NCBI GenBank assembly: GCA_027319565.1
Contig: DAHVNA010000005.1
Coordinates: forward strand, 548-64,547
DNA: 64,000 bases
Direction of reading: 5' to 3'
Source of the DNA: Elusimicrobiota bacterium
GTDB taxonomy: Bacteria; Elusimicrobiota; Elusimicrobia; UBA1565; UBA9628
A model generated the notes under the pieces. That model made no database searches, had not been told where the DNA came from, and saw nothing but the letters and a program-made list of their open reading frames with translations. A program made the translations under genes and the position numbers. Within the stretch, counting starts at the first letter, position 1, and each line of letters begins with the position of its first letter. Shown one piece after another: positions 8,704 through 42,008 of this stretch.

Positions 8704-8706
8704 CTT

Positions 8707-9948: not shown

Positions 9949-9956
9949 CTGACCCC

Positions 9957-10757
9957 CTACAAAGTTTTAGCCGTATCCGGCTTGACAAAAATTTTTCCGC
10001 TGGAAAAAGAACGCATATCAACGAAGAAATTGCCTTTAACATAGGTCTTAGCGTCCGCCATAACGGCGTTGAGCCTCTTAAGCTTATCCTCCGTCCACTT
10101 AAGATCTCCCCAATCAACTCGGGTTCCGTCATTTAAAGTCAAGAGCCATCCATTGACCAAAGACTGATAGCGCAGACTTTCAATCGGAGACGAAAGCGGC
10201 AAAGACGAAATCTTTTTAAGAAAAGCGGCTATCTGAGCCAAGGCCTTAGGATCCATTTTCGCGTCTAAAATTTTGGGAACAGGATTTTGATACAACTCCT
10301 GCGGGGCTTTAAAAAGTTTCCCCTGTTTATCCAGAAAGCTTGAATTGCCATCCTTCATAACGACGGCGATCGCTTGGCGTAAAACAACATGATAAATTAA
10401 GCTTTGAGAAAAAAAATCTCGCCGGAGATGAACCGATTCCAAAAAGGGAAAATGCGCCAAGATATCCGAGCTTTTATTTTTCCAAGAATGGACGCTTTGG
10501 GATTTAAGAAAAGAAAGAATTTCAGGTTTTAAAGATTCAGGCGCGCCCTCAACCGCCACTGTTTTGGGGGCGGGAATTGACCCGGAAATCGAGTTTTCGA
10601 TCAAGAAAGCGGATTTTTTTAAGCGCGACCAACTTAAAACCAGAGAAGTCCCCAGGACAAACATCGCAAGCACGAACAGAATCTTGCGCTTTCGCGCCTT
10701 CCGCTCTTGCGGCCTTAAAGCCACCTTGAGATTTCTATGCGAAACAGAGCCTTTCAT
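9957..10757 (-). CDS. ftsQ: Cell division protein FtsQ/DivIB (POTRA domain)
   Basis: Basic N-terminus, single TM (ILFVLAMFVLGTSLVLSW), POTRA-like beta region. Position between murB and ftsA. Confidence 0.7.
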   Translation of the reverse strand: MKGSVSHRNLKVALRPQERKARKRKILFVLAMFVLGTSLVLSWSRLKKSAFLIENSISGSIPAPKTVAVEGAPESLKPEILSFLKSQSVHSWKNKSSDILAHFPFLESVHLRRDFFSQSLIYHVVLRQAIAVVMKDGNSSFLDKQGKLFKAPQELYQNPVPKILDAKMDPKALAQIAAFLKKISSLPLSSPIESLRYQSLVNGWLLTLNDGTRVDWGDLKWTEDKLKRLNAVMADAKTYVKGNFFVDMRSFSSGKIFVKPDTAKTL

Positions 10758-11680
10758 AACGAGCGCCCAACGACCTTGATTTCAAGCTCAAGACTCACCC
10801 CCGCCTCCGCCTTGATTTTTTGCTGTATTTTTTCGATCAGATCCAGCACATCCGAGGCCTTGGCGTTGTTAAAATTTTCAATAAAATTGGCATGGACAGG
10901 GGAGACGCGTGCGCCGCCCGAGGATATTCCCTTAAGCCCGGCTTTTTCAATTAACTCCGCGGCAAAAAAACCATTGGGGTTTTTAAAAATAGAACCAATA
11001 TTAAAGGTATGCACGGGCTGAGTTTTTAAGCGTTTTTCTTGATGAACCGCAACGCGCTTCATTATATCAACTTTCTCGCCTTCTCTCAATCGCAAAAGAG
11101 CCGATAAAACCACGCGTCCCGAAAGCCCGCTTGAGCGGTAAGAGAAATTGACTCGGGATGAATCAATGAACTCCGATTTAAAAGAGCGCGGATCGAAAAT
11201 CTCGATATCCTGAATTAAAGCGCCAATTTCAAGATCGCGCGTTCCGGCATTCATCATCACGGCTCCGCCCAAGGTGCCGGGAATGCCAACCAATGGCTCC
11301 GCTCCCCCTAAACCGTGATTGGCCGCGACGGAAATAAACTGGGGAATTCGCACGCCGGCCCCAACGCGGACAAGGCCTTTTTCCAAGAAATCGATCTTTT
11401 CAAAGTCGCCTTTGAGAACAGCCACCACCCCCGCGATTCCACCATCCAGGATCAGCAAATTAGAGCCCCAACCCATGAAAAAAACGGGAATATCCACCTG
11501 CCGGCTAAAGCGCATTAAGGTTTCCAGCTCAAGGCGATTATTGATTTCAAGGTAAGCCTCAGAGGGCCCGCCAATCTTAAAAGTCGTGTAGCGCGCCAAT
11601 GGTTCCCCGAAGCGCGCTTGAGGGAAAATCTTTTTCAGAGCTTCTTTCCAATCCGCTTGCATTAAATACAAGCTTAACAA
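10754..11680 (-). CDS. murB: UDP-N-acetylenolpyruvoylglucosamine reductase
   Basis: FAD-binding PCMH domain (TFKIGGPSEAYLEI, MGWGSNLLI), C-terminal MurB domain. Dcw context. Confidence 0.9.
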   Translation of the reverse strand: MLSLYLMQADWKEALKKIFPQARFGEPLARYTTFKIGGPSEAYLEINNRLELETLMRFSRQVDIPVFFMGWGSNLLILDGGIAGVVAVLKGDFEKIDFLEKGLVRVGAGVRIPQFISVAANHGLGGAEPLVGIPGTLGGAVMMNAGTRDLEIGALIQDIEIFDPRSFKSEFIDSSRVNFSYRSSGLSGRVVLSALLRLREGEKVDIMKRVAVHQEKRLKTQPVHTFNIGSIFKNPNGFFAAELIEKAGLKGISSGGARVSPVHANFIENFNNAKASDVLDLIEKIQQKIKAEAGVSLELEIKVVGRSL

Positions 11681-11850
11681 ATGGGCCTCTTGTAATTCTA
11701 TAGACGGAAATCAAAAAAAGGCAACGTCCCAATCACTACTCAGCTTATCCAGACAATTAAATAGACTGCTTAATATGTATATTAGGAGAAAGGGCGAATC
11801 CTTTTTGAGATTTATTAATCTAAAGGATAGAAGGGCCTTGGAGGCGCAAC

Positions 11851-13380
11851 ATGAATCAGAAAAAAAATTCGGGCTTTTATTTGAGGGGGGCTCTATTCTC
11901 AGTTTCCCTTTTTGTTTTTCCGCGCATTTTGACGGCCGCGACCTGGATGGTTCCCGTCGCGCCTCAGGGGCCTTTTGACCGGGTTTACTATCCGCAAAAT
12001 GCGCCGGTGGGTTCCGACTTAAGTGTCGGGCCGCTTGAATGGACGCAAATGAATCTCGGGGCCGATCACAATGCGGACGTTCCTCTATTAGGGCAAATGC
12101 CGCCGTGGTCTAAAAATGGAGTTTCTTGGAGATTTGCGGAAGCTCGGGCTTGGCCTTTGGAAAACAAAGATCCATTCGGAACCCATATCTACGGCGAAGT
12201 TGAGGCGGGCGCGGTTCAAACTCAGTTTTACGGAAACGCTCTTGGAGTTTCCGTTGTTGATGGAATCCTCTATGCCGAAAGCGATGATATGTTTGCCTAC
12301 GCCTTAAACATGAAAACGGGGCAGTTGATCTGGCGCACGAGTCCGGTGGGAAATCATTTAATGGGAAATCCCATTGTTAAAGGCCGTTTTGTTTATTTGT
12401 CGGCGGGTGGAGTGGGATTTAATTTCGCAAACGTCGTCAAATACGCAAAAACCCCTTACAAAGCCGTTCGAGGAATGGATTTTAGTTATAACGGAATCTA
12501 TGCTTTGGATCGCTTGACCGGCCGTCTTATTTGGCGACATTCAAGCGTGGGCGAAGCCATGCCAACTCCCGCCGTCCATGGAGATGTTCTTTATTTCGCG
12601 ACCGGAAGCGGCTCTGTCCATGCCGTTAACCGCCACACCGGCCAAACAATATGGACGACTCACTTAACGGGAAGCGACAATATGTCGAGTCCCGCCTACT
12701 ATCAAGGCAAACTTTATCTTGCTCTCGCCATTAAACCGCGCCTTTATTGTCTTGACGCCAAGACCGGAAAGGTTTTATGGAAAAACACGCTTCCCGGCGC
12801 GGCCAATACCGGAATGGGAGACGTCTCTCCGGCTGTTTCAAACGGCGTCGTCATTATGGACGCAGTCACTCATCCCAAAATCGTAAGAGGTAAAACGACG
12901 CTAGATCCAGTGATTCGGGCTTTTGATTCTGATTCCGGCGCGCCGCTTTGGACCGCGTCCATGGGACGAGGCCCCAAACCTCCGGCTTTTAAAGGCGGGG
13001 TTCCCATGATTTATGGAGGAGTGGTTTATGTCGGTTCGCCAGTCAACGGAGCTTATCAGGCGCGCGATTTAAAAACCGGAAAACTGTTGTGGAAATGGAA
13101 TAAAATTTCTTCGGCCAGAAGCGCGCCTACCATGGATGACAACATCCTTTATATCGCCGGCGCGGAAAGCGTTTATGCGCTCAATCCGCGAACTGGGAAA
13201 GAAATAGGACACATCAAGATCGGCGGAAGAATGGGAATTGTGAGCCCGACAATCGTTGGGGGGACAATTTATTTGTCCAATACCTGGGATTGGATTGTCG
13301 CGACTCCAAAACAAGATGTTTTAACCTCCAATCAAGAGAAACAGAAACAAACGCAGCCAGCCCAACAGAAAAACAATTAG
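11851..13380 (+). CDS. Secreted PQQ-like beta-propeller repeat protein (BamB-like fold)
   Basis: Signal peptide. Repeated ~40-aa units with G.LYA/G.V.ALD..TGK.LW patterns characteristic of PQQ/WD-like propellers. 509 aa. Confidence 0.7.
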   Translation: MNQKKNSGFYLRGALFSVSLFVFPRILTAATWMVPVAPQGPFDRVYYPQNAPVGSDLSVGPLEWTQMNLGADHNADVPLLGQMPPWSKNGVSWRFAEARAWPLENKDPFGTHIYGEVEAGAVQTQFYGNALGVSVVDGILYAESDDMFAYALNMKTGQLIWRTSPVGNHLMGNPIVKGRFVYLSAGGVGFNFANVVKYAKTPYKAVRGMDFSYNGIYALDRLTGRLIWRHSSVGEAMPTPAVHGDVLYFATGSGSVHAVNRHTGQTIWTTHLTGSDNMSSPAYYQGKLYLALAIKPRLYCLDAKTGKVLWKNTLPGAANTGMGDVSPAVSNGVVIMDAVTHPKIVRGKTTLDPVIRAFDSDSGAPLWTASMGRGPKPPAFKGGVPMIYGGVVYVGSPVNGAYQARDLKTGKLLWKWNKISSARSAPTMDDNILYIAGAESVYALNPRTGKEIGHIKIGGRMGIVSPTIVGGTIYLSNTWDWIVATPKQDVLTSNQEKQKQTQPAQQKNN

Positions 13381-13392
13381 AAGGAAATCGCC

Positions 13393-14295
13393 CTAGTGGA
13401 TTTGAAAGCGATGGGAATAAGTAAAGGAATAGACATTATTCTTTTCCCCACTCCCCACTTCTGTTGCCCAGGCGGGGATATAGGTGAGAGTAAAATTAAG
13501 GGGACGATAGACCACAGAAATTCCGCCGCCGGCGGCGGTGTTGTCAGCGGAACTGGGCAGTAAAGCGCTTCCCGAGCTTGTCGCTTGACTTGTTTGAGCC
13601 GTGGGCGTTCCGCTGACGATATAACCAAAAAGAATCCATCTTAAAAATCCGGTGTTAAACTGCGGGGCAATTCCGGCGTCATATGAAAATCCCTGGGCAT
13701 TATAAATATTTCCAATCCCGGAATCATTTTCCATGAGATTGCGATATCCCATTCCCACCAGAATCGGCAGTCTAAAATTATTTCCCGAAAACGGATCAAA
13801 AACGATGTCGGCATTGGCGAGAGAACCGTTCGAAGTGGCCTTATCACCGCTAAAGTCCGTGCCTGATAAATGCCCGTATCCCGCCATGACGCCGATGCCC
13901 CAGTGATCGGTAAGGCTGTAAATTGCGGAAGTTCCAATTCCTTCGCCATTCATCTTCCAGGTTGAATTAGGCGTTGCTGGACAGGAACCCGAACAACTTT
14001 CAGAAAGAGCATATTGATCATAGCCTGGGGAAACGGAAACATCCAACGCCCCGGAAGAAAGCGGCTTGGTGGGAAGAGAAGAAGCCATCAGGTATCCCAT
14101 CATTTCCTTAATATCCGAAGCGGCGACCGGCGATTGAAAACAAAAAACAATCGCGGCACACAAAATAATTTTCTCAAACAAGTTCAGATGCCAGCGACAA
14201 GAGTTCTGTTCCCCGAGATTTTTCAAGGTATACTCCATTGACAAATAATATAGAAGAATCCTCTCCCCCTTGCAAGAGAGCTCCAACGCATCCAC
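13393..14295 (-). CDS. Putative outer-membrane protein (hypothetical). Start uncertain, possibly Met at 14238.
   Basis: N-terminal hydrophobic signal-like segment (IILCAAIVFCFQSPVAA). Gly/Ser/Tyr-rich alternating pattern suggestive of a beta-barrel. No family match recognised. Confidence 0.5.
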   Translation of the reverse strand: MDALELSCKGERILLYYLSMEYTLKNLGEQNSCRWHLNLFEKIILCAAIVFCFQSPVAASDIKEMMGYLMASSLPTKPLSSGALDVSVSPGYDQYALSESCSGSCPATPNSTWKMNGEGIGTSAIYSLTDHWGIGVMAGYGHLSGTDFSGDKATSNGSLANADIVFDPFSGNNFRLPILVGMGYRNLMENDSGIGNIYNAQGFSYDAGIAPQFNTGFLRWILFGYIVSGTPTAQTSQATSSGSALLPSSADNTAAGGGISVVYRPLNFTLTYIPAWATEVGSGEKNNVYSFTYSHRFQIH

Positions 14296-14387
14296 AAAGC
14301 CCCCGAAAAAAATAGGTCCTTTGACCCAAAGCCATCTGGGCCTTTTGGCCCTGTTGGACTTTTAAAAATTATCTTACACTCAAACAG

Positions 14388-17300
14388 ATGAGAAAAATAA
14401 TCGCTCTGCTTATCACCGCCACTCTCTGCGCGCCTGGTCCTCTTTTCGCTGAAAGTTTAGAAACTTCTTTTCAAGCGGAAACTCCCGCCCAAGTTCTTAG
14501 CCTTACGCAATCTCCTCTTAATATAGAATCCGCGAGTACAATTCCCGCCGATAATTTAAGCCCGGTCGGTTTTGAAAACGGAGAATCTCTCTCAGAAACG
14601 CCTCTTCAACGAATGCATTCTCCCAAAACGCTCAATCGGGTGAGAATTCTTGAACTTAAGCCCGAGACGCCCGCGCTAAAAGAAAAAGCGAGTCCGGTTC
14701 AAAAAATAAAAGGGCGCATCTCTAAAACCATCCAATACGCGAAAAAATCAATCAAGGTTAATCGCCAAAACCTCGCGGGAAATCTCTCTCAATTTTTCGA
14801 TCGCTCGGCGCATTTTTCAAACTACAAAGACTCTCCCGTCATCACCCCCTCTGGAAAAGAAACTCGGTCTTTAAAACCTTGGCAGAAGGCGGGAACTCTA
14901 GCAACGGCGACTGCGTCTCTGACCAAAGTTCAAAGCGCCATCGCAAGTCCTCTCGCGACTCCGCAAAACGCGCCGGTTCAACACTCTCTTTTAACTTCCC
15001 TTTTTAGCGCCAGCGGACTCACTCATCTGGTTCTCACCGCCGCTGCGGTTGTCTTTACTTATTGGGTTTGGAAAAAATTTGGATCCAACTTGCGCCAAAA
15101 AATTTCTGATTGGAAAAATAACAGAAGCAAAAGCTGGAAAGAAAGCGCTCGAAAACAAAAAGAGGAAAATGCGCCCGTTTCCTCTATTACCTTCGCCGAT
15201 GTCGCCGGGCAAGACAAAGCCGTCAGCGAGGTCAGAAAAATCATTTCCGCCTTTGAGTCTCCCTCTAAATATAAAAGCGTGAACGCCCGTTTTAAGCCTC
15301 GAAACGCCTTCCTGCTCGTTGGCCCGCCGGGAACGGGAAAAACCCTCTTAGCCGAGGCTGTGGCCGGAGAACTTAAACTCGACAAGAGTTCTTTTTTCAA
15401 AACCGACGGTTCTTCGTTTATGAACAAATTTGTCGGAGTCGGCCCCGATGCCGTTCGCAAATTTTTTGAGAAAGCGCGAGAACAAAGCAAAAAATCGGGG
15501 AAGCCTTCCCTGATATTTATCGATGAAATCGATGGATTCGGAAACCGCGGCGGAAACGCCGACAGCGGAGCCGACCACGAAAAACAAATGACCATCGGCG
15601 CTCTTCTAACTGAAATGAACAACCTCTCGGGACCGGACTATAACGTTCTGGTCATCGGCGCCACCAACGAATTCGGAAAACTCGACAAAGCTCTTAAGCG
15701 CTCGGGCCGGTTTGGAACGCATATCGCGCTTGAAAATCCCGATCTTCAAGGACGCGAGAGCATCTTGCGCCTCCACACGAAAGAGGCGCGCTTATCCTCG
15801 GATGTCGATCTCCATAAAATCGCGGAAAAGATAACGGGCTTTTCGGGAGCCGACATCGAAGCGGTCGCCCAAAGGGCGACTGAAATCGCCGTTGAAGACA
15901 ATCAAGCCGACTTTATTTCTCAAGCCGATTTTGAAAAAGCGGTCGAAGGCATCAAAGAAAACATCAATCAAAAGGCCAAAGCCGTCGATAGCTCCAACAA
16001 CTCCTCTACGATATCCGTTCAATTTGAGGACCCCGAAACCATGACGACCGGATTTTCCCAGATCGCCGGACAAGACGAGGCTAAAGCGGAAGTCGCGGAA
16101 CTCGTCGAGCAAGTCAAAAATCGGTCGCGCTATCTTGAGATTAACCCGCAATTCCGCCCGCTGCGCGGAGCTCTATTATTTGGACCTCCGGGAACGGGAA
16201 AAACCTTGATGGCCCGGGCGATCGCGAAAGAATCCGGAGCCCTTTTCTTTAAAGTAGACGGAACCGAATTTCTCAAAAAGTTCGTAGGCGAAGGCCCCCA
16301 GGCGGTGCGGGATATTTTCGAGGCCGCGTCCTATGAATCTAAAAGAGAGAAAAAGCCGGCCATCATATTCATCGATGAAATTGACGCCATCGGCCGCGCC
16401 CGAGGTTCGGATCTAAACGGAAGCCAAGACGCCCTGGTCAACCAGCTTTTAACCGCCATTGACGGATTTAAAACCGAAAATAATGTCACCGTCATCGGGG
16501 CGACCAATAAGCCGGAATCTCTCGACCCCGCTTTAACTCGCGGCGGCCGGCTTGAACTTCAAATTCCCATCGGGCTTCCCGATGTCTTGGGGAGAGAAGG
16601 AATTCTCAAGGTCCACACCCAGGGTATCGCGCTGGATTCCAGCGTCAACCTCAGGGAAATCGCGCAACAAACTGCGGGTTTTTCCGGAGCGGATATGGAA
16701 AGCCTGGTCATGAAAGCGACTTCCGCCTCCATTAAACGCGGAGCCAAGGCCCTTTCCGAAACGGATTTTATTTCTTCAATCGATCGCGTCCAGCTGGGAA
16801 TGGAGAGAAAACTCGTCATGCCGGAAGATGAAAAAGAAGTCGTCGCCTATCATGAAACCGGACACGCCCTGGTCTCCCATCTTCTGCCGGACTCCGACCC
16901 CATCCGCAAAGTCACCATCGTCCCGCATGGCCTTAACGCCTTGGGGTTGATGCAAGCGGTCTCCGATGTCGAGAGAAGAATTCAAAGCCGCTCCTATCTA
17001 GTCGCCCGAATGGCGGTCGCCTTGGGCGGAAGAGCCGGGGAAGAACTCCTAAATGAGAGAATTTACGGGAAAAAAGAAAATTTCTCCGGGGCATCCAACG
17101 ATCTTGAGAAAGCGACTGAAATCGCCAGATATATGGTGATGAAATTTGGGATGTCCGACAAAATCGGGTTGGTCAGCTACGGATTTGAAAACGAGCGGCA
17201 AAATCAGAAGCCAATGAGCGAAGAAACTTCCAAGGCCATTGAAGCCGAGGTGAAATCTCTTGTAGAACAAGCCTATCATACGGCGAGAGAGACCCTTGAA

Positions 17301-32018: not shown

Positions 32019-32082
32019 AATCCATAAACCGTCTTGAGAAGAGAACCATATTTAGTAGAATGAGGTATTCCTCTACTCAACG

Positions 32083-34263
32083 ATGAATCTTGATCTTCTC
32101 AACCCCGAACAAGCGCGCGCGGTTCTTCACAAAGAAGGACCGCTCTTGGTTCTGGCCGCGGCGGGAACCGGAAAAACGCGGGTCATCACTTACCGGATCG
32201 CCAAACTTATCGAAGAAGGCGTTCCCCCCGAAAGAATCCTGGCCGTCACTTTCACCAATAAAGCCGCCGAGGAAATGCGCCAAAGAATTGAGTCTCTGTC
32301 TCCCGGAAAAGGCAGCGCGGTCTGGGTTTTCACTTTCCACGGCTTCTGCGCGAAGCTTTTGCGCCAGCACTATGAGTTAGCCAAACTCAGCCGTCATTTC
32401 ACGATTTACGATCAATCCGACCAAAAAAGACTGATCACCGAAGCGATGAAGGAACTCGGTCTCGATAGAGAAACCGCGAAGGCCTCGATGTATACCGGAA
32501 TTATCTCGCGCGCCAAAGACGATCTTTTAGACGCCGAGTCCTACGCGATCTATGCCGAAACGACCGTTGACTCTTCCAGAAAAACCGCCGCGAGAATTTA
32601 CAGCGTCTATCAAAAGAAGCTGGAAAACGCGGGAGGAGTCGATTTCGGAGATCTCTTGCTTAAAGTTTGCTCTCTTTTAAAGGAACACCCCTCTATTCGC
32701 GAATACTATCAAGATTATTTCCGGCATATTCTCGTAGACGAATACCAAGACACCAATCACGCCCAATACATCATCACCAAAACCCTGGCCTCCAAACATA
32801 AAAATCTGTGCGTGGTCGGAGACGACGATCAAAGCGTTTATTCTTGGCGCGGCGCCGATATCCGAAACATCTTGGAATTTGAGCGCGATTTTAAAGACAC
32901 CGGAGTCGTCACTCTCGAACAAAATTATCGTTCGACCAAGCCGATTCTCGACGCCGCGGGACGGGTCATCCGCAACAACGGAAAGCGCAAAGCCAAAACC
33001 TTATGGACAAAAAAAGAAGGCGGCAACGCCATCCATGTCCAAGAGTTGATGGATGAAAGAGAAGAGGCTTCCTGGGTAGTCCGTAGAATCGAAGGGGAAA
33101 AAAGAGGAGGGCGTTCTCTTTCCGATTTCGCGATTTTTTACCGCACCAACGCGCAAAGCCGTTCTTTTGAAGAGGCCTTGCGCCGCGCCGGAATCAATTA
33201 TCGATTGATCGGGGCGATGCGCTTCTATCAAAGACAAGAAATCAAAGACGCCTTGGCTTACGCGCGCGTGATTTTAAATCCGAGAGATGAAATTAGCCTG
33301 ATGCGAATCGTCAACACCCCGCCACGGGGTATCGGAAAAACCAGCCTTGAAAGAATCAAGGCTTTTGCGAATTCTAAAAATTTAAGCGGTTTGGACGCCT
33401 TTAAGGCGGCCTCGGAAATAGAAAATTTGACGCCTTCTTGCCGCAAATCCTTAGCGGATATGACTTCCTTTATTGACAGAATTCAAACCGATTTGCCGTC
33501 TTTGTCGGCCGGGCTTGCAATGGCGCGCATTTTAGAAGAATCCCGCTATTTTTCTTGGCTGGAACAAGAAAGCGAAACCGATCTCGACGCGGCTTCTCGT
33601 CTCGCCAACGTCCAAGAACTTTTAAACTCGGTCAAGGAATACGAAGAAAGAAGGCAGGCCTCCGGTTCTCCTTTAAGCCTTAGCCAGTATCTCGAAGAAA
33701 TCTCTCTTCAAACCGACAGCTTGGATGCGCCGGGGGGCGAGGATTCGATAACCCTGATGACCATTCACCTCGCCAAGGGCCTTGAGTTTCCAGTGGTTTT
33801 CCTGACCGGTCTTGAGGAAGGGTTATTTCCAATCGGCTCGAATAATTCTTCCCAGGAGGAATTGGAAGAAGAAAGGCGCCTCTGCTATGTCGGAATGACG
33901 CGGGCAAAGGAAATGTTGTATTTGACTCATGCCTCGACTCGGCGCGTTTTCGGACAAACCTATTCCAATATCCCTTCCCGCTTTATCATGGAGTCTCAGG
34001 TTGAAAGCGAATGTTCGCCCTCTTCCAAAAGACTGCCCGCTCAACCCGCGATGACGGGCTCCTCTCTTCAGCCGCCAAACTCCTACGCCCAAAGAATGGG
34101 GGCAGCGCTAAGAGTCGGCTCTCGAGTTCGGCACCCGCTTTTTGGAACGGGAGAAGTGCTGGAAAAATCCGGCAGCGGAGAAGGCGCCAAAGCCCTCATC
34201 CGCTTTCAAAATGGAAGAATCGCCAAACTTGTTTTGCGCTACGCCCCCTTGGAGGTTATTTGA
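32083..34263 (+). CDS. pcrA: ATP-dependent DNA helicase PcrA/UvrD (SF1)
   Basis: Motif I LVLAAAGTGKTRVITYRIA, motif II VDEYQDTN, motif III VVGDDDQSVYSWRGA, motif VI. 726 aa. Confidence 0.9.
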   Translation: MNLDLLNPEQARAVLHKEGPLLVLAAAGTGKTRVITYRIAKLIEEGVPPERILAVTFTNKAAEEMRQRIESLSPGKGSAVWVFTFHGFCAKLLRQHYELAKLSRHFTIYDQSDQKRLITEAMKELGLDRETAKASMYTGIISRAKDDLLDAESYAIYAETTVDSSRKTAARIYSVYQKKLENAGGVDFGDLLLKVCSLLKEHPSIREYYQDYFRHILVDEYQDTNHAQYIITKTLASKHKNLCVVGDDDQSVYSWRGADIRNILEFERDFKDTGVVTLEQNYRSTKPILDAAGRVIRNNGKRKAKTLWTKKEGGNAIHVQELMDEREEASWVVRRIEGEKRGGRSLSDFAIFYRTNAQSRSFEEALRRAGINYRLIGAMRFYQRQEIKDALAYARVILNPRDEISLMRIVNTPPRGIGKTSLERIKAFANSKNLSGLDAFKAASEIENLTPSCRKSLADMTSFIDRIQTDLPSLSAGLAMARILEESRYFSWLEQESETDLDAASRLANVQELLNSVKEYEERRQASGSPLSLSQYLEEISLQTDSLDAPGGEDSITLMTIHLAKGLEFPVVFLTGLEEGLFPIGSNNSSQEELEEERRLCYVGMTRAKEMLYLTHASTRRVFGQTYSNIPSRFIMESQVESECSPSSKRLPAQPAMTGSSLQPPNSYAQRMGAALRVGSRVRHPLFGTGEVLEKSGSGEGAKALIRFQNGRIAKLVLRYAPLEVI

Positions 34264-34562
34264 TGGAAAAATCTTCTCCGATTACGAAAGAAGACGTGCT
34301 TAAAATCGCGACCTTGGCTAAATTGTCTTTGTCCGCCGATGAAGTTTCCCTCTACCAATCGCAATTCGTCAAAATCTTGGACTCGATCGCGGAATTGTCC
34401 CGCTTAAATGTGGAAAACGTGCCCCCGACCTCTTCAGTCCTGGGTATCAAAAACGCCTTGCGCGAGGATCAAGCGTCTCCTTTTGATAACATGAACGCCC
34501 TCATTGATAACGCGCCGGAAAAAGACGGCCCTTATTTCAAAGTTCCTAAAATAATCGAATGA
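34263..34562 (+). CDS. gatC: Glu-tRNA(Gln)/Asp-tRNA(Asn) amidotransferase subunit C
   Basis: MEKSSPITKEDVLKIATLAKLSLSADEV typical GatC. ATGA overlap with pcrA stop. The upstream extension of the ORF is rejected. Confidence 0.85.
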   Translation: MEKSSPITKEDVLKIATLAKLSLSADEVSLYQSQFVKILDSIAELSRLNVENVPPTSSVLGIKNALREDQASPFDNMNALIDNAPEKDGPYFKVPKIIE

Positions 34563-36022
34563 ACCATTTAACTTCGCTCTCAGCCGCTCAAATCGCAAAA
34601 AACGTCTCGGATGGAAGTTTGAAGGCCGAAGAAGTCGCCGCAGCTCACTTAAGCCGCATTAAATCCGAAGACTCCAAGGTCAAGGCCTTTATCACGGTCT
34701 TAGAAGAACACGCGCTTAAGGTTGCCCGCCAAATTGACTCAAAAAGGGCTCAAGGGAAAAAGCTCGGCAAATTAGCCGGGGTTCCAATCGCCATCAAAGA
34801 CAATATTTTAGTCAAAGGCGTTGAAACCACCTGCGCCTCTAAAATTCTCAAGGGCTTTATGGCCCCTTACGACGCGAGTATCATCGCGAAACTCAAAGAA
34901 GAAGACGCCGTCATTATTGGAAAAACCAATCTCGATGAATTTGCGATGGGCTCATCGAACGAAAATTCCGCTTTCTTTAAGACTAAAAATCCCTGGAATT
35001 TAGACGCCGTCCCCGGGGGCTCTTCGGGAGGCTCGGCCGCCGCGGTCGCGGCCAAAATGGCGCCTTTATCCTTGGGCTCGGACACCGGAGGTTCTATCAG
35101 GCAACCCGCCGCTTTTTGCGGCTTAGTGGGTCTTAAGCCGACCTACGGACAGGTCTCCCGCTATGGCCTTATCGCCTTTGCCTCGTCTCTTGACCAAATC
35201 GGCCCCATGGCCCGAAGCGTCGAGGACGCCGCGCTTTTATTATCCTCTATCGCGGGACACGATTTAAAGGATTCGACATCGTCTCCACAAGCCGCCACCC
35301 ATTTTTCGGGAGCGCCGCTTGAAAGCGCCTGCGGCCTTAGAATCGGAATGCCGCGAGAATATTTCGCCGAGGGCCTTGACCCCGAAATCCGGAAATCCGT
35401 TTGGAACGCCGTCAATTTCCTAAAAACCATCGGCGCTGAAGTCAAAGACGTCTCTCTGCCGCATACCGCTTACGCCGTCGCGACGTATTACATCATCGCG
35501 CCATCCGAAGCCGCCTCCAATCTGGCTCGCTTTGACGGAGTCCGCTATGGACACCGCGCGCAGGACGCGAGAAGCCTTTCGGAACTCTACGAAAAAACCC
35601 GCGGGGAAGGTTTTGGCCCCGAGGTTAAAAGGCGAATCATGCTGGGCACCTACGCCCTAAGCTCGGGCTATTACGACGCCTATTATAACCAAGCGCAAAA
35701 AGCTCGGACTCTGATCGCGCAAGATTTTGAAAACGTTTTTAAGGAAGTCGATTTTCTAGCCACCCCCACCACTCCAACGGCCGCCTTTAAATTCGGCGAA
35801 AAATCATCCGACCCGGTGGCGATGTATCTATCGGATATCTTTACGATACCTTCTAATCTCGCCGGAAACGCCAGCCTCTCTGTTCCCTGCGGGCTAACCA
35901 AAGACCATTTGCCTATCGGGCTCCAGCTAATCGCTCCGGCCTTCCAAGACGAAAAATTATTGGCGCTCGCGGCCACCGTGGAAAAGGCCGTCAATTTCCC
36001 GCAGATCGCTGGGATTGGATGA
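34559..36022 (+). CDS. gatA: Glu-tRNA(Gln) amidotransferase subunit A (amidase signature family)
   Basis: Amidase signature GGSSGGSAAAVAA, Ser-cisSer-Lys triad context. 487 aa. ATGA overlap with gatC. Confidence 0.9.
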   Translation: MNHLTSLSAAQIAKNVSDGSLKAEEVAAAHLSRIKSEDSKVKAFITVLEEHALKVARQIDSKRAQGKKLGKLAGVPIAIKDNILVKGVETTCASKILKGFMAPYDASIIAKLKEEDAVIIGKTNLDEFAMGSSNENSAFFKTKNPWNLDAVPGGSSGGSAAAVAAKMAPLSLGSDTGGSIRQPAAFCGLVGLKPTYGQVSRYGLIAFASSLDQIGPMARSVEDAALLLSSIAGHDLKDSTSSPQAATHFSGAPLESACGLRIGMPREYFAEGLDPEIRKSVWNAVNFLKTIGAEVKDVSLPHTAYAVATYYIIAPSEAASNLARFDGVRYGHRAQDARSLSELYEKTRGEGFGPEVKRRIMLGTYALSSGYYDAYYNQAQKARTLIAQDFENVFKEVDFLATPTTPTAAFKFGEKSSDPVAMYLSDIFTIPSNLAGNASLSVPCGLTKDHLPIGLQLIAPAFQDEKLLALAATVEKAVNFPQIAGIG

Positions 36023-36101
36023 AAACGGACTGATGGAAGCGCCAAAGCAATCACAATGGAAGCAACCGCTGAAATCCAAACCTGGAGAGGCTACAATAAA
36101 T

Positions 36102-37196
36102 ATGCCGCTAACGCGTAGGGCCTCTCATATGATGCAGCCCTGTTTGTTCGAGGACAATTCGCCTCCTTGCATGCCATCAGTGCAGTTTCTTGGCAATAAG
36201 GAAAAATTATTGCCTTGGATTTTTAGTTTTGTGCCAACCTCGACTTTACAAAAACCCTTGCGTTTTCTTGATGGTTTTTCCGGTTCAGCCGCAGTGTCAT
36301 ATGAAGCCAAGCGCAGAGGGTTTCAAGTCACCAGCAATGATCTATTGCAATCGTGTTGGCAGTCAGCGGCGGGCTTAATAGAAAACGGGACAAATACGCT
36401 CTCACAGGCGGAAGCGGAGCGTTTATTCGAGCATTCCACCCAGGCAAGCGACATGATGAGACGGCTATTTGCCGGGCGATTTTTTACGGAATCCGAGGCA
36501 GGATTGCTGGATTCCTTCCGAGCCAACATAGAAATATTGCCAACAGCTAAACAATCGCTCGCGATGGCGGTGATGAATCGCGCCTTGACGCGAAAAATTT
36601 TGATGGGACATTTTGCCCATTGCCAAGCGTTGACTTACGCCGCCAATCCCGCTCGAATTCGGCGGAATCCTAGTATTGCTAAACCTATTCAACAATTATT
36701 CTTTGATCTATTGCCGGAATTTAACCAAGCTGTATTTGATAACGGTCTAGCGCATCACGCCTATAACTTGGAGTTGCTGGAGTTATTGCATGATGAAGTG
36801 GATTTCCATGTGGCATATTTTGATCCTCCATACTGCATGAGTCATGGCGATTACCAATCGTTTTACCATCTACTAGAGACCTATTCCCGCCGCTGGATGG
36901 ACAAAGAATTTATTGGGGGCACTAATCGATACTGGCCTCCCCTAGACACTGGTTTTGACAAAAAAGCGACAGTGATTGACTCTTTCAATAGGCTGTTCAA
37001 ATTGGCGGCTCCAATCCCACTATGGCTAATCTCATATAACGACCGGAGCTATCCTAATGTGGAAATGTTTCACGACCTGTTGTCGGCAACCGGACGAACA
37101 ATAGAAGTGCATCGTTATCAATACCAAAACAGCCGTGGCGGAAAAGGTTCGGTTAAGGGATCTCACGAAATTTTGTTTTTGGCACGCAATGAATAA
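36102..37196 (+). CDS. Dam-like (alpha-class, D12 family) N6-adenine DNA methyltransferase. Start could alternatively be Met 36171.
   Basis: N-terminal FLGNKEKLLPWI (matches the Dam/T4 Dam KWAGGK/GNK...LLP motif), motif I FLDGFSGSAAV (FxGxG), motif IV DPPY (HVAYFDPPYCMSH). GGAGAGG RBS before ATG 36102. Low-GC segment. Confidence 0.75.
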   Translation: MPLTRRASHMMQPCLFEDNSPPCMPSVQFLGNKEKLLPWIFSFVPTSTLQKPLRFLDGFSGSAAVSYEAKRRGFQVTSNDLLQSCWQSAAGLIENGTNTLSQAEAERLFEHSTQASDMMRRLFAGRFFTESEAGLLDSFRANIEILPTAKQSLAMAVMNRALTRKILMGHFAHCQALTYAANPARIRRNPSIAKPIQQLFFDLLPEFNQAVFDNGLAHHAYNLELLELLHDEVDFHVAYFDPPYCMSHGDYQSFYHLLETYSRRWMDKEFIGGTNRYWPPLDTGFDKKATVIDSFNRLFKLAAPIPLWLISYNDRSYPNVEMFHDLLSATGRTIEVHRYQYQNSRGGKGSVKGSHEILFLARNE

Positions 37197-38274
37197 ATTC
37201 AAGCATTGGTTAAAATGTTACGAAACGGATGATTTATTGCCGTTTACCGATAACGCCGACGCGTTGCTTTGGTTAAAACTCAAATCCATTGCGCGAAGAG
37301 AATACCTGAATGGATTCTTGCTTCATAGTGGGATAAAATTAAAATCGGGCACATTGAAAGAACAATGGCGAGAGCTGTTTGTTTCATTACATCAGCGGCA
37401 TGATGCGCATTCGTTGCTGGATGCTTTTATTCGCGATCAAGATCGCCGTATAGCATTGGCTTTGCCGGTTCAACAACTAGTTTCCGAACTTTACAAAATG
37501 CGTTCCTTTGACTGGGGCGGAAACTATCAGAATAATTTAGACCGTTTCCTGGTGGATCGCTATATTAAAAATATTCCGTCGTTTGATATTCTTTCGTCCA
37601 AAATAAAAACGGAAATCGCGGCGAGCGTTTCCGGTTATGTGTTGTGCTCATGGTATAATCACTGGTCATCCATTTTAATCGAGCACTTGTTCAAGCAACA
37701 CCCAAAAGTCTTACCAACGATCGGCATGATAAAAAAAGTTGATTTTTTTATTGATCAAATACCATTCGATCTAAAGGTGACTTATCTGCCGCAAGGCTAC
37801 ATCGCAGAGCAACGCAAGGCGATGGGACTAAAGCCTGAGCTAACGGAGCTAAAAGAATATGCACGAACTGAAAACATATCTTTCGATAAAACCGTCGACG
37901 ATGCGACGCAAACATATGAGATTACACAAAAATTGCTTGATATGGGCAGTCCTAATGCGGACCAGGTTCAGCGCATCAGGACTCGCATTCTAAAAGATGC
38001 CATAAAATCGCCAAAACTCTTGGCGCGTTGGCTCTATGAGAATCAAGGCGAGCGCCGATTTGACGCTTCAAATCGCGTTTTTCTAGTTATGGTGGACACC
38101 ACGGATTGGGATGCAAGCTGGAAATTAAAGCGGAATTTAGATGCGCTCAAGCCATCAATTGAAGGCTGGATTAATTCGTTTGACCGCAAGAAATTAGAAC
38201 GTTTGAAGCTAGAGTTTATTTTCGCGGGAAAATCATACCGGTGTTTTTCTGACGTCATTTTTATTGTGCGATGA
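37189..38274 (+). CDS. Putative cognate type II restriction endonuclease (hypothetical protein translationally coupled to the methyltransferase)
   Basis: ATG 37189 overlaps the MTase stop (ATGAATAA). 362 aa. Candidate PD-(D/E)XK-like motif (VDFFID...FDLK). Low GC like the MTase. No confident family match. Confidence 0.45.
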   Translation: MNKFKHWLKCYETDDLLPFTDNADALLWLKLKSIARREYLNGFLLHSGIKLKSGTLKEQWRELFVSLHQRHDAHSLLDAFIRDQDRRIALALPVQQLVSELYKMRSFDWGGNYQNNLDRFLVDRYIKNIPSFDILSSKIKTEIAASVSGYVLCSWYNHWSSILIEHLFKQHPKVLPTIGMIKKVDFFIDQIPFDLKVTYLPQGYIAEQRKAMGLKPELTELKEYARTENISFDKTVDDATQTYEITQKLLDMGSPNADQVQRIRTRILKDAIKSPKLLARWLYENQGERRFDASNRVFLVMVDTTDWDASWKLKRNLDALKPSIEGWINSFDRKKLERLKLEFIFAGKSYRCFSDVIFIVR

Positions 38275-38291
38275 TGCTAAGATGATGCTAA

Positions 38292-38693
38292 ATGGATAAA
38301 GAAAAATCCGCGGGAGGCATTCTCAGTAAAAATGGCAAGCTTATGCTGGTCCGCGTCAAGAATCTCATGGGGCAAAAAGTTTGGACTTTTCCAAAAGGAC
38401 ATATCGAAAAGAACGAAACTCCTAAAAAAGCCGCTCTTAGAGAGGTTTGGGAAGAGACCGGATGGGAATGCAAAATTATACGCCCCCTTTTTCTCGCCCG
38501 CTATCGTTTTAAAAGAAACGACAAGCCGGTCTCTAAAACCGTACGCTGGTATCTCATGGAACCGTTTTTAAAATCAGGGCGCCCAATGGCGGGGGAAATT
38601 CTCTCGGCCCAATGGCTCAGCCCCAAAATCGCCGGGAAAAGGCTCAAATATAAATCAGACCTTAGACTTTTAGACCTCTGGAAAAAACTATGA
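38292..38693 (+). CDS. NUDIX hydrolase
   Basis: Nudix box GHIEKNETPKKAALREVWEETGW. 133 aa. ATGA overlap with gatB start. Confidence 0.8.
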   Translation: MDKEKSAGGILSKNGKLMLVRVKNLMGQKVWTFPKGHIEKNETPKKAALREVWEETGWECKIIRPLFLARYRFKRNDKPVSKTVRWYLMEPFLKSGRPMAGEILSAQWLSPKIAGKRLKYKSDLRLLDLWKKL

Positions 38694-40114
38694 CAGAATC
38701 TTTTGAAATGGTCGTCGGACTCGAAGTCCATGTTCAGCTCGCGACAAAAACAAAACTCTTTTGCGCCTGCGCCAACGACGGTTTTGGCGCTCCCCCCAAT
38801 AGCCGGGTTTGTCCGGTCTGCACCGGCCAACCCGGGGCCTTGCCGGTTCTCAACAAAAAAGCCGTGGAATTGGCCTTCAAGGCGGCTTTAGCTTTAAATG
38901 GAAAGCTCGCGCACAAATCCATTTTCGCGCGCAAAAATTATTTCTATCCCGATCTGCCGAAGGCCTATCAAATCTCCCAATATGACGAACCTTTTTGTTT
39001 GGGCGGAGAAGTCCCCTTGCGCCTCAAAGACGGAAAAACGAAAATCGTCGAACTGGCGCGCATTCATATGGAAGAGGACGCGGGAAAACTTCTCCATGCC
39101 ATCGGCTCTCAGGCCTTGAATTATTCCCTGGTTGATTTCAATCGCGGCGGGGTTCCTCTCATTGAAATCGTCTCAAAGCCGGAAATTTTTTCAAGCGACG
39201 AAGCCTACGCTTATCTAAGCAGCCTCAAAGAAATTCTCCAATACGCCGGCGTTTCCAACTGCGACATGGAAAAAGGCGAAATGAGATGCGACGCCAATAT
39301 TTCTTTAAGGCCAAAAGGCTCCAAGAAACTTGGCACGCGGGCCGAAATCAAAAATCTCAATTCATTTAAGAACGTTAAGGACGCCTTGGAATATGAATTT
39401 CTGCGCCAAGCCGACGTTCTTTCTTCAGGCGGGAAAATCATCCAGGAAACGCGCCTTTGGAACGGAAAAGAAACCGTCTCGATGCGCTCAAAAGAAGAAG
39501 CCCACGATTATCGCTATTTCCCCGATCCGGATCTGGTTCCCATCGACATCACCCCGGAATGGAGCGACAAAATCAAATCCGAAATTCCAGAACTCCCGCA
39601 AGCCCGCCGCGAGCGCTTTGTCTCGGACTACCATTTATCTCCTTATGAAGCCGAGGTCTTGGTCTCCGACCGAGTCATCTCCGATTATTTTATCCAGGTT
39701 TTGAAATCTTCTGAAGCGCAAAATGACGCGGAGGTGTTGGCCAAGCTCATCATGAACATCCCTGATTTTACTCCAATCGCGCCAGAGCAGATGGCTTCTC
39801 TAGTCGCCCTTTGTCGTCAAAAAACCATTACTATTAACCAGGCCAAAGAACTTTATCCCGAGATTCTTGAATCAAAAAAAGACCCGAAGATTCTAGTGGA
39901 AGAAAAAGGCTTGGCCCAGGTTTTAGACGAAAAAATTTTACGGGATTGGGTCCAAGAGGCTCTCGCCTCAAACCCAAAGGCGATATTAGATATCAAGGGC
40001 GGAAAAAAACAAGCCGCAGGCGCGCTAGTTGGCGCGGTGATGAAATTATCCAAAGGAAAAGCCAATCCCGCCTTGGTCAACAAACTCATATTCGAAGGGA
40101 TTGACAAAGCGTAA
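38690..40114 (+). CDS. gatB: Glu-tRNA(Gln)/Asp-tRNA(Asn) amidotransferase subunit B
   Basis: YEMVVGLEVHVQL, CDANISLRP, C-terminal YqeY/GatB domain. 474 aa. Confidence 0.9.
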   Translation: MTESFEMVVGLEVHVQLATKTKLFCACANDGFGAPPNSRVCPVCTGQPGALPVLNKKAVELAFKAALALNGKLAHKSIFARKNYFYPDLPKAYQISQYDEPFCLGGEVPLRLKDGKTKIVELARIHMEEDAGKLLHAIGSQALNYSLVDFNRGGVPLIEIVSKPEIFSSDEAYAYLSSLKEILQYAGVSNCDMEKGEMRCDANISLRPKGSKKLGTRAEIKNLNSFKNVKDALEYEFLRQADVLSSGGKIIQETRLWNGKETVSMRSKEEAHDYRYFPDPDLVPIDITPEWSDKIKSEIPELPQARRERFVSDYHLSPYEAEVLVSDRVISDYFIQVLKSSEAQNDAEVLAKLIMNIPDFTPIAPEQMASLVALCRQKTITINQAKELYPEILESKKDPKILVEEKGLAQVLDEKILRDWVQEALASNPKAILDIKGGKKQAAGALVGAVMKLSKGKANPALVNKLIFEGIDKA

Positions 40115-40218: not shown

Positions 40219-40689
40219 ATGAATGAAACAAAGGCAGTGAAAGGAGCGCGGGCTTCGGGATTCACGCTCATTGAGTTAATGATCGTGGTTGCTATTATCG
40301 GTATTTTGGCGGCTATCGCCATACCGAAGTTCGCGAATCTTATCAGACAGTCTCAGGAAGGAGCGACGAAAGGAAACCTGTCAGGGATCCGCTCGGCGCT
40401 GAGCATCTATTACGGAGATAATACCGGGGTTTATCCGACGGACCTCCCGGGGCTCACCGTCAACGGAAAGTATCTGTCAGTCATCCCGAACTCGACCATT
40501 CCTCCGTATCACACGGCTACGTCTCTTGATGTCAACCAGACAGCCGGCGGCGGCCCTGGAGCGGCATCGGAAGGATCTGGAGCTGGAGAATGGCTCTACG
40601 ACAGCCTTTCAACCGATGGAAACTACGGCGGAGTGTGGGTTAACTGCACGCATACCGATACCCACGGGACAACCTGGACGACCTATTAA
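40219..40689 (+). CDS. Type IV pilin (PilA-like major pilin/pseudopilin)
   Basis: Prepilin leader ending G|FTLIELMIVVAIIGILAAIAIP (N-methyl-Phe class III signal). 156 aa. Confidence 0.8.
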   Translation: MNETKAVKGARASGFTLIELMIVVAIIGILAAIAIPKFANLIRQSQEGATKGNLSGIRSALSIYYGDNTGVYPTDLPGLTVNGKYLSVIPNSTIPPYHTATSLDVNQTAGGGPGAASEGSGAGEWLYDSLSTDGNYGGVWVNCTHTDTHGTTWTTY

Positions 40690-40746: not shown

Positions 40747-41559
40747 ACGATGATGAAATCCCTGACGACTCCAAAAAACCGTCTTCACATCTCTCATTGG
40801 GGCGGGACGGGACGACCGATTCTCTTGGTTCATGGACTCGCCGGGAGCGTATCTTGGTGGGACAAGGTTTGTCCCTTACTCAAAGACGATTTTGAAGTCG
40901 CGGCTCTAGACCTCTCTGGACACGGAGACAGCGCCTGGTCTAAAGACGGCCAATATGCGATGGACTTATTTTTATCGAATATCGACGAAGCCCGGGAATT
41001 TCTTAATTGGAAGAAATTTATTCTCGTGGGCCACTCCCTGGGAGCCCGAATCAGCGTCGAATACGCCTCTCGGGAGAAATCTCCTTTAGAAGGCCTCATC
41101 GCCATTGATTTCATGCCCCGCGTAAAAGAATCTAGCCCAAGATTTTCAAGACTCGCGGGGCTTCGGCAACCCGTGTTTTCCAACGAAGAGGCGATGATCA
41201 GCCGCTTTCATCTCCAGCCTAGAGAAACCAATCTCTCCGAAGAAGAAATGCGAGAACTCGCCAAAAATCTAATCCGGCCTTGGAAAAACGGCTTTAGCTG
41301 GAAATGCGATTGGAGAGCTTTTTTAATCCGCTACGAATCCGTCTGGCCGCTTTTGCCCCGGATTCAAACGCCCAGCTTAATAGTCCGCGGACAGTTAAGC
41401 CCCATTATGGACCGAGAAGACATTAAAAAAGTTTGCCAGGAAACACTCAGAAGCGAATGTCTGGAAATTCCAGGCGCCTATCATCACGTGCCTCTCGACG
41501 CGCCAGAAGCGACGGCAAAAGCGATCCTTGATTTTGCTCAGAAACTGGTCTCTCTATGA
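40744..41559 (+). CDS. Alpha/beta-hydrolase fold protein
   Basis: HG oxyanion motif (LLVHGLAGS), nucleophile elbow GHSLGA, catalytic His near C-terminus. 271 aa. Confidence 0.7.
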   Translation: MTMMKSLTTPKNRLHISHWGGTGRPILLVHGLAGSVSWWDKVCPLLKDDFEVAALDLSGHGDSAWSKDGQYAMDLFLSNIDEAREFLNWKKFILVGHSLGARISVEYASREKSPLEGLIAIDFMPRVKESSPRFSRLAGLRQPVFSNEEAMISRFHLQPRETNLSEEEMRELAKNLIRPWKNGFSWKCDWRAFLIRYESVWPLLPRIQTPSLIVRGQLSPIMDREDIKKVCQETLRSECLEIPGAYHHVPLDAPEATAKAILDFAQKLVSL

Positions 41560-42008
41560 CGCCCTCTCACTTTGTCGCCACGGGATATGTCGTTAAAAAC
41601 GGGAAGACCCTTCTTTTACTCCACAAGAAACTAGGCTTTTGGCTGCCTCCCGGCGGACACATCGAAGAAAACGAAAATCCGGTGGAAGCTCTCTTGCGGG
41701 AAGTGCGGGAAGAAACCGGGCTTAAAGTTAAAATTCTATCGCCCTTGATTTCCCCGCCCCCCAAGGAAAAAGATGTCCAGTTTCTACATGTACCCAATCA
41801 CTTTCAGATGGAAATATTGCCCGGACACGGAATTCATTTCGATCTCGTCTATTTTTGCAAGGTCATCGCGGGCCGGGAAAAATTTTCCGTCCAGGAAAGC
41901 CGCGACATGAAATGGTTCTCTCCCAAAGATCTGGCTTCCCCTCAAATACGAGATGAAGTCAGGCGCGTGGCTCTTCAAGCCATTAAGCATGTCGGAAATA
42001 TCCGATAA
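41556..42008 (+). CDS. NUDIX hydrolase
   Basis: Nudix box GGHIEENENPVEALLREVREETGL. 150 aa. Confidence 0.8.
   Translation: MTPSHFVATGYVVKNGKTLLLLHKKLGFWLPPGGHIEENENPVEALLREVREETGLKVKILSPLISPPPKEKDVQFLHVPNHFQMEILPGHGIHFDLVYFCKVIAGREKFSVQESRDMKWFSPKDLASPQIRDEVRRVALQAIKHVGNIR

Follow-up and report, generated by a model that had tools for sequence, protein, structure and literature searches.

A probable two-gene Type II restriction-modification cassette inserted between gatA and a NUDIX gene in an Elusimicrobiota bacterium

Introduction

Orthodox Type II restriction-modification (R-M) systems with an alpha-group (D12-class, PF02086) N6-adenine methyltransferase (MTase) include DpnII, MboI and EcoRV. 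R-M systems are able to enter operon-like gene clusters, and to move even where no mobility genes are linked to them (PMC2993543, PMC2853133). The locus described here lies in a stretch of 64,000 nucleotides (nt) from an Elusimicrobiota bacterium (GCA_027319565.1, contig DAHVNA010000005.1, positions 548-64,547 of the forward strand), the whole of which is referred to below as the window. Two genes, called M and R, separate gatA, encoding the amidase subunit, from a NUDIX hydrolase gene that is coupled to gatB. They probably constitute a two-gene Type II R-M system, M followed by R, which was horizontally inserted at the stop/start junction of gatA and the NUDIX gene in this Elusimicrobia-related bacterium.

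Insertion into the gatCAB operon

A preliminary description of this DNA had reported about 2.3 kb between gatA, which ends at 36022, and an ATGA-coupled NUDIX-gatB pair. The four host genes have strong Pfam matches, namely gatC (34263-34562), gatA (34559-36022; PF01425, 5.6e-166), the NUDIX gene (38292-38693; PF00293, 5.7e-18) and gatB (38690-40114; PF02934, 1.2e-116 and PF02637, 4.2e-33), all on the forward strand. The observation was borne out, with 2,269 bp from the gatA stop to the NUDIX start (36023-38291) and a 4-nt overlap at the NUDIX-gatB junction.

The nearest relatives were found by a GatA scan of species-representative genomes. They are a metagenome-assembled genome (MAG), L011, with 87% GatA identity to the window, and the Elusimicrobia MAGs L012 (68%) and L013 (63%). 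All three have the gene order uvrD-gatC-gatA-NUDIX-gatB with the NUDIX gene directly after gatA, so that 2.2 kb could not fit in between; in L011, the stop of gatA abuts the start of the NUDIX gene (TAG-ATG). Because of this arrangement, the extra DNA of the window is the M-R pair only. Hence, the proposed interruption of gatCAB stands for the M-R pair, which is extraneous, but not for the NUDIX gene, which is shared with all three relatives and is a native member of the operon in the host lineage. The horizontal acquisition that had been proposed is supported by these empty sites, and the M-R cassette is an insertion between the gatA stop and the native NUDIX start, very probably acquired by horizontal transfer.

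The DNA homology between the window and L011 fades at about 36000-36009, some 14 nt upstream of the gatA stop. The C-terminus of GatA differs, reading NFPQIAGIG in the window versus NFPQLN in L011. The insertion therefore remade the final codons of gatA together with its stop, and the true left edge of the cassette may lie about 14 nt inside the gatA end.

Base composition had also been invoked, with 35-37% guanine plus cytosine (GC) in the cassette against 62% in gatA. The dip is real and is the deepest in the window, whose GC minimum lies inside the cassette, and in GC the cassette ranks among the lowest 0.9% of windows of its size. However, the figures given compared extremes: 60-nt windows range from 28 to 55% within the cassette and from 38 to 63% within gatA, while the overall values are 44.2% for the cassette, 53.2% for gatA, 49.1% for the window and 49.3% for the cassette flanks, an actual difference of about 5-9 points and not of about 25. 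The cassette GC is below the flank GC in several hosts.

The methyltransferase gene

From its motifs and profile matches, the product of M (36033-37196, forward strand) is assigned to the alpha-group, D12-class exocyclic-amino DNA MTases. It matches PF02086 (MethyltransfD12; 62.2 bits versus a cut-off of 22, E = 8.1e-17), the PADLOC Type II MTase model MTase_II PDLC03385 over its full length (4e-54) and PHROG 27806, a phage DNA methyltransferase family (2e-41). The three motifs first reported, FLGNKEKLLP, FLDGFSGSAAV and DPPY, are all present. The predicted S-adenosylmethionine-binding motif I, FLDGFSGSAAV (FxGxG type), is encoded at 36264-36296, with the FLDGFSGS part at 36264-36287, and the predicted catalytic motif IV, DPPY, downstream at 36822-36833. 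In an alignment of 21 sequences, D86, F88, G90 and S91 of the former and D270, P271, P272 and Y273 of the latter are invariant. The order of the motifs, FxGxG N-terminal to DPPY with a variable region between them, is that of the alpha group. The label "Dam-like" is correct at the level of the class, but M falls outside the Dam orthologues: against their subfamily model, TIGR00571, it scores well below threshold (25.2 bits versus a cut-off of 114.85, over the N-terminal 56 residues only), and the match to the Dam and T4 Dam entries of the PDB has E = 0.56.

The start of M is uncertain, and the ATG at 36033, giving 387 amino acids (aa), is favoured. Alternative starts exist at 36102 (364 aa, with GGAGAGG 11 nt upstream) and 36171 (341 aa). 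Automated or public gene calls in several MAGs begin at the equivalent of 36171 and thereby lose a conserved N-terminal LFE motif, related records are called at 364-387 aa, and the homologue in the sister lineage member L176 is called from the ATG equivalent to 36033. The N-terminal peptide follows the pattern M-[EN]-A-[PL]-x-Q, being M-E-A-P-K-Q in the window and M-N-A-P-Q-Q in relatives located in a different operon. The ratio of nonsynonymous to synonymous substitution rates (dN/dS) is 0.46 over the first 46 codons, indicating weak constraint, versus 0.15 for M overall.

Linkage of the R family to methyltransferases

R (37189-38274, forward strand) encodes a putative Type II restriction endonuclease of 361 aa, one fewer than the 362 first reported. 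As had been described, the M stop overlaps the R start: the TAA at 37194-37196 and the ATG at 37189 share the 8 nt ATGAATAA (37189-37196), and translational coupling is likely. Clustered at 90% identity, the homologues of R number at least 2,891 and are typically about 50% identical; an exhaustive profile search gave 698 clusters at 50% identity. They are found, patchily, in Planctomycetes, Spirochaetes, Fibrobacteres, Bacteroidetes, Verrucomicrobia, Patescibacteria, Proteobacteria and archaea, and the source names of the cluster members are all "hypothetical protein".

Genomic context provides the strongest evidence on R. Among 72 metagenomic loci with at least 600 bp upstream of the R homologue, an MTase gene adjoins the homologue in all 72. 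In 50 it is a D12 MTase gene and in 17 a PF01555-type MTase gene immediately upstream, while in the remaining five it lies within about 250 bp; the 50 D12 partners are on the same strand as the R homologue. The linkage recurs in both viral contigs and in all four genome or MAG loci examined. The junction of the two genes is usually an overlap of 1-35 nt, with 14 nt the commonest for D12 partners (30 loci), and a layout of two genes only, M upstream with a small overlap, is found in 67 of the 72 loci. The Treponema pedis homologue is paired with a PF01555 MTase of 493 aa (4e-21), and the two genes overlap by 8 nt as in the window. No further conserved partner gene was seen at the R-family loci examined. 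Since one nuclease family pairs with non-homologous MTases (PF02086 and PF01555), the association points to a functional link between R and the MTase and not to shared descent.

Two variants of the arrangement were encountered. The 729-aa protein P0254, from the 50%-identity representative library, joins a D12 MTase (residues 18-270) to a full R homologue (residues 365-729), and could be a genuine fusion of the two genes or could have arisen artificially, by a frameshift or misassembly where stop and start overlap. The locus L174 (1940-5333) has the order M-R-M, with an upstream D12 MTase 49% identical to the M of the window and a very divergent downstream D12 MTase (25%).

Conserved motif and predicted structure of R

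An alignment of 29 R sequences, extending down to 22-25% identity, contains 10 invariant columns. D185, D194 and L195 are invariant, E165 and K196 are conserved in at least 90% of the sequences, and all of these motif residues are intact in the window copy. The proposed active site (37681-37776) comprises E165 (37681-37683), D185 (37741-37743) and D194-L-K196 (37768-37776). Because R is conserved across unrelated MTase partners and carries an acidic-acidic-lysine motif, it resembles a Type II restriction endonuclease.

Structure prediction had been suggested as a way to look for a PD-(D/E)XK fold in R. The AlphaFold2 model (predicted local distance difference test, 91.9; predicted template modelling score, 0.89) has an N-terminal helical domain of about residues 1-140 followed by a C-terminal PD-(D/E)XK-like domain. 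In the latter, a helix (145-169) is predicted to precede strands 174-181, 184-188 and 191-199, which are followed by helices and a further strand at 296-302. E165 is placed on the helix, D185 at the start of strand 184-188 and D194-x-K196 within strand 191-199, such that the predicted alpha-beta-beta-beta-alpha-beta core carries the conserved residues as in PD-(D/E)XK enzymes. A helical insertion of about residues 202-285 is modelled between the third and fourth core strands. The motif and the predicted topology agree, and R is probably a PD-(D/E)XK-like Type II restriction endonuclease. The proposed pairing of an MTase with its endonuclease is therefore supported by the motif and by the MTase linkage at every sampled locus, and no non-nuclease function was found for R.

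Age and maintenance of the cassette

All 10 contigs that encode the identical NUDIX protein carry the cassette, which is also found at the same site in the sister lineage L176-L178, whose MTase is 90% identical to that of the window. Between the window and L176, DNA identity is 0.90 for gatA (dN/dS 0.075), 0.87 for M (dN/dS 0.15), 0.89 for R (dN/dS 0.13), 0.89 for the NUDIX gene and 0.89 for gatB. The synonymous divergence (dS) is 0.41-0.47 and is alike for gatA, M and R. The similar dS and the shared site place the entry of the cassette after the split of the L011 lineage and before that of the window and L176. Since then, the cassette has been inherited vertically, and M and R have been under purifying selection since before a split that corresponds to about 10% DNA divergence.

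Junctions and mobility

The flanking operon contains no integrase or transposase gene, and no flanking direct or inverted repeats above the chance level were found at the cassette. No tRNA gene lies within 28-46 kb of the cassette, which ruled out tRNA-linked integration. A tandem duplication of 11 bp, GATGATGCTAA twice (38270-38291, forward strand), spans the R stop and the spacer before the NUDIX gene. It was considered as an insertion scar or target-site duplication and dismissed, since in L176 the repeat unit occurs once, in diverged form, and the spacer is 6 nt long versus 17 nt in the window; for the same reason, the repeat is taken as a later local duplication.

Cassette copies 77-83% identical to that of the window are located between yebC and ruvC in L001 and L096, where the junctions are likewise tight (the upstream genes overlap by 4 nt, ATGA, and 2 nt separate the downstream ones). 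DNA homology between these loci and the window is limited to the two open reading frames (ORFs), and on this basis the mobile unit appears to be the bare M-R gene pair. Site-specific targeting of yebC|ruvC was considered for L001 and L096, which differ in GC, and was rejected because their flanks are about as similar to each other as their cassettes are; a single, older insertion in the L001/L096 lineage is probable for this reason.

The yebC-ruvC-ruvA-ruvB operon of L001 (ENA ERZ25039499 contig_2830, 3.14 Mb; 8156-16468) has three separate insertions. One is the M-R pair between yebC and ruvC. An Xre/RES toxin-antitoxin pair is found between ruvA and ruvB, together with a C5-cytosine MTase gene, split into ORFs of 263 and 133 aa, and a BsoBI-family endonuclease gene (PF09194, 1.4e-114).

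Expression and proposed mechanism

The cassette is separated from its neighbours by spacers of 10 nt on the gatA side and 17 nt on the NUDIX side, and a sequence scan detected no terminator-like site at either junction. Inside the cassette, there is one weak promoter match (9 of 12 consensus positions), and the best sigma-70 candidate (10 of 12) is a possible operon promoter upstream of uvrD (32034-32061, forward strand). Taken together, these features make read-through transcription of M-R from the host operon likely.

Under the proposed mechanism, the pair would be transcribed by this read-through, with M translated first and R coupled to it via the 8-nt overlap. M would methylate adenine in a short target sequence on the host DNA, and R would cut the same sequence when unmethylated, with D185 and D194 probably binding Mg2+ and K196 taking part. 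Cleavage would both restrict incoming DNA and penalise loss of the cassette; once the pair was lost, leftover R would threaten the chromosome. A deletion with inexact ends would harm gatA or have polar effects on NUDIX-gatB. Its place in an operon that is essential and tightly coupled may give the cassette constitutive expression while making clean deletion unlikely.

Weighing of alternative explanations

Several results weigh against the assignment of the cassette to Type II R-M systems. R, alone and as a profile, has no match in Pfam, NCBIfam, PADLOC or the PDB sequences, hence its assignment as a nuclease rests on the motif, the predicted topology and the context. Fold searches of R gave nuclease matches that were weak and below significance. 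The R family, large and without a Pfam, NCBIfam or PADLOC model, is the sole new element of the locus and may already be listed in REBASE. Read-through transcription is inferred from consensus scans alone. Finally, site avoidance was tried as a pointer to the target and proved non-diagnostic: the observed/expected ratio (O/E) of GATC is 0.64 in the window versus 0.62 in L011, the empty-site relative. In pooled carrier loci (L096-L175), the O/E is 0.56 for GATC, 0.64 for GGCC, which contains no adenine, and 0.78 for CATG, compared with about 0.9-1.0 in control loci (L012-L090), and palindrome depletion is stronger inside the M and R genes (0.34-0.57); the cassette of the window contains 10 GATC sites, about the number expected by chance. 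A Foldseek search of the R model against the PDB found nothing, R showed no consistent family in PHROGs, all 53 members of its alignment showed none in Pfam at E <= 10, and a tblastn search of annotated plasmid and phage records gave no match. A Neil1-DNA_bind assignment was discarded as noise (16 bits versus a cut-off of 25).

That R resembles no established nuclease family, whether in sequence or in a significant fold match, would also be compatible with M being a solitary epigenetic or regulatory enzyme, with R an unrelated or non-nuclease accessory, for example a DNA-binding or regulatory protein, that travels along; the N-terminal domain of R indeed resembles generic helical bundles. Yet R is conserved while paired with two unrelated MTase families, a pattern that fits a restriction enzyme but not an accessory tied to one MTase, its invariant residues form an E/D/DxK pattern on the canonical strand order, and it is patchily distributed across phyla at about 50% identity, which together make this explanation very unlikely. 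It is also very unlikely that R is a nuclease in a pair other than a classical Type II system, either decayed or repurposed, or acting as the effector of another methylation-linked defence. In favour of this reading, the cassette sits within a housekeeping operon and shows no sign of recent mobility in the host lineage, but the intact motif of the window copy and the low dN/dS of R, which denotes selection on the protein, speak for a functional enzyme, and the standard Type II layout at 67 of the 72 loci, where extra conserved partner genes were not seen, is that of a classical pair. That M and R form a functional Type II R-M pair is accordingly preferred.

As for its origin, the window and L176 differ in the cassette in step with their host genes, as expected under vertical inheritance over that time span, and M and R could on this ground be ancestral to the operon and have been cleanly deleted in the relatives, with no horizontal insertion at all. 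Such a history would require three independent seamless deletions, in L011, L012 and L013, each of which restored a tight gatA-NUDIX junction. It is further at odds with the GC of the cassette, which is below that of its flanks in several hosts, with the close homologues in the unrelated yebC|ruvC operon and with the scattering of the family over bacterial and archaeal phyla, and is extremely unlikely compared with horizontal insertion.

Implications

As a selfish or defence element, the cassette is of an ordinary kind, and the presence of R-M genes in a conserved operon is a known phenomenon; current understanding is not overturned by these findings. The locus nonetheless adds an independent case of R-M units colonising operons, and it is a clear case, open to dating, of a selfish or defence module that selection has preserved whole within an essential translation operon.

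A broader interpretation is doubtful, namely that R represents an uncharacterised restriction endonuclease family, with a death-fold- or SAP-like helical N-terminus and a very divergent PD-(D/E)XK core, or that M-R is a junction-preferring unit. In the latter case, a promoterless M-R unit might preferentially land where one gene of a tightly coupled housekeeping operon stops and the next starts (gatA|NUDIX and yebC|ruvC), which could ensure both its expression and its retention. In the former case, defence annotators would miss R, and thousands of its MTase partners would be scored as orphans. Pfam, NCBIfam and PADLOC hold no model of the R family, so tools that need a recognised nuclease will label such systems as orphan MTases. 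A profile built from the present alignments would mend this annotation gap. The specificity of the R family is possibly new, and R could then offer a new specificity.

Host operon and neighbouring genes

The region 32083-40114 is a single co-directional string of tightly packed genes, uvrD-gatC-gatA-M-R-NUDIX-gatB. The uvrD/pcrA-like helicase gene (32083-34263, forward strand) overlaps the gatC start by 1 nt, and a UvrD/PcrA-type helicase gene is also located upstream of gatC in L011-L013. Based on this overlap and conservation, the host operon appears to be uvrD-gatC-gatA-NUDIX-gatB. The NUDIX gene, between gatA and gatB and ATGA-coupled to the latter, is kept in the lineage down to 63% GatA identity (38292-38693 in the window, 4288-4797 in L011, about 5572-5979 in L012 and about 9485-9877 in L013). 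Other phyla in the GatA scan have gatA-gatB without an intervening NUDIX gene.

Downstream, gatB is directly followed by a type IV pilin-like gene with an N_methyl motif (40219-40689), and a second NUDIX gene (41556-42008) lies 2.9 kb downstream of the first. The MAGs L003 and L005 have an extra Methyltransf_21 (PF05050) gene (14862-15740 and 10153-11031, respectively) between the second NUDIX gene and gcvT. This gene is a strain-level polymorphism relative to L002 and the window (at about 42050), as the R (ORF2) and NUDIX proteins are identical. MAGs of the L003/L005 type also have a DUF4258/DUF2283 pair upstream of an SLT/LysM gene.

Comparison with known systems

Compared with orthodox Type II systems that have a D12-class MTase, the cassette differs in that R has no detectable similarity to Pfam restriction-enzyme families or PDB chains and carries about 140 additional residues as a helical N-terminal domain, and in that M is not a Dam orthologue. 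It is alike in its two small, separate genes, with M upstream and overlapping R, in the order of FxGxG before DPPY, in a nuclease with D...DxK and in the patchy distribution of its members across phyla. The R family also occurs with a PF01555 beta-type MTase, and the DpnII system likewise uses both methyltransferase types.

With the PD-(D/E)XK superfamily, R shares the glutamate on a helix, the aspartate that starts the second strand and the D-x-K in the third strand, all as predicted in the model. The 9-residue spacing from D to DxK is within the range of known enzymes such as PvuII. The large helical insertion (about 202-285) between the third and fourth core strands sets R apart.

The closest parallel to the insertion itself is found in the R-M mobile units described by the Kobayashi group (PMC2993543, PMC2853133). 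Whereas long target duplications and terminal inverted repeats are catalogued in PMC2853133, the cassette of the window has neither, and its junctions fall at stop/start boundaries with spacers of 10 and 17 nt. Similar to those units, it is an R-M-only insert with no integrase or transposase in a conserved, co-directional gene cluster, its empty site is revealed by genome comparison, and related copies are present in another operon, between yebC and ruvC.

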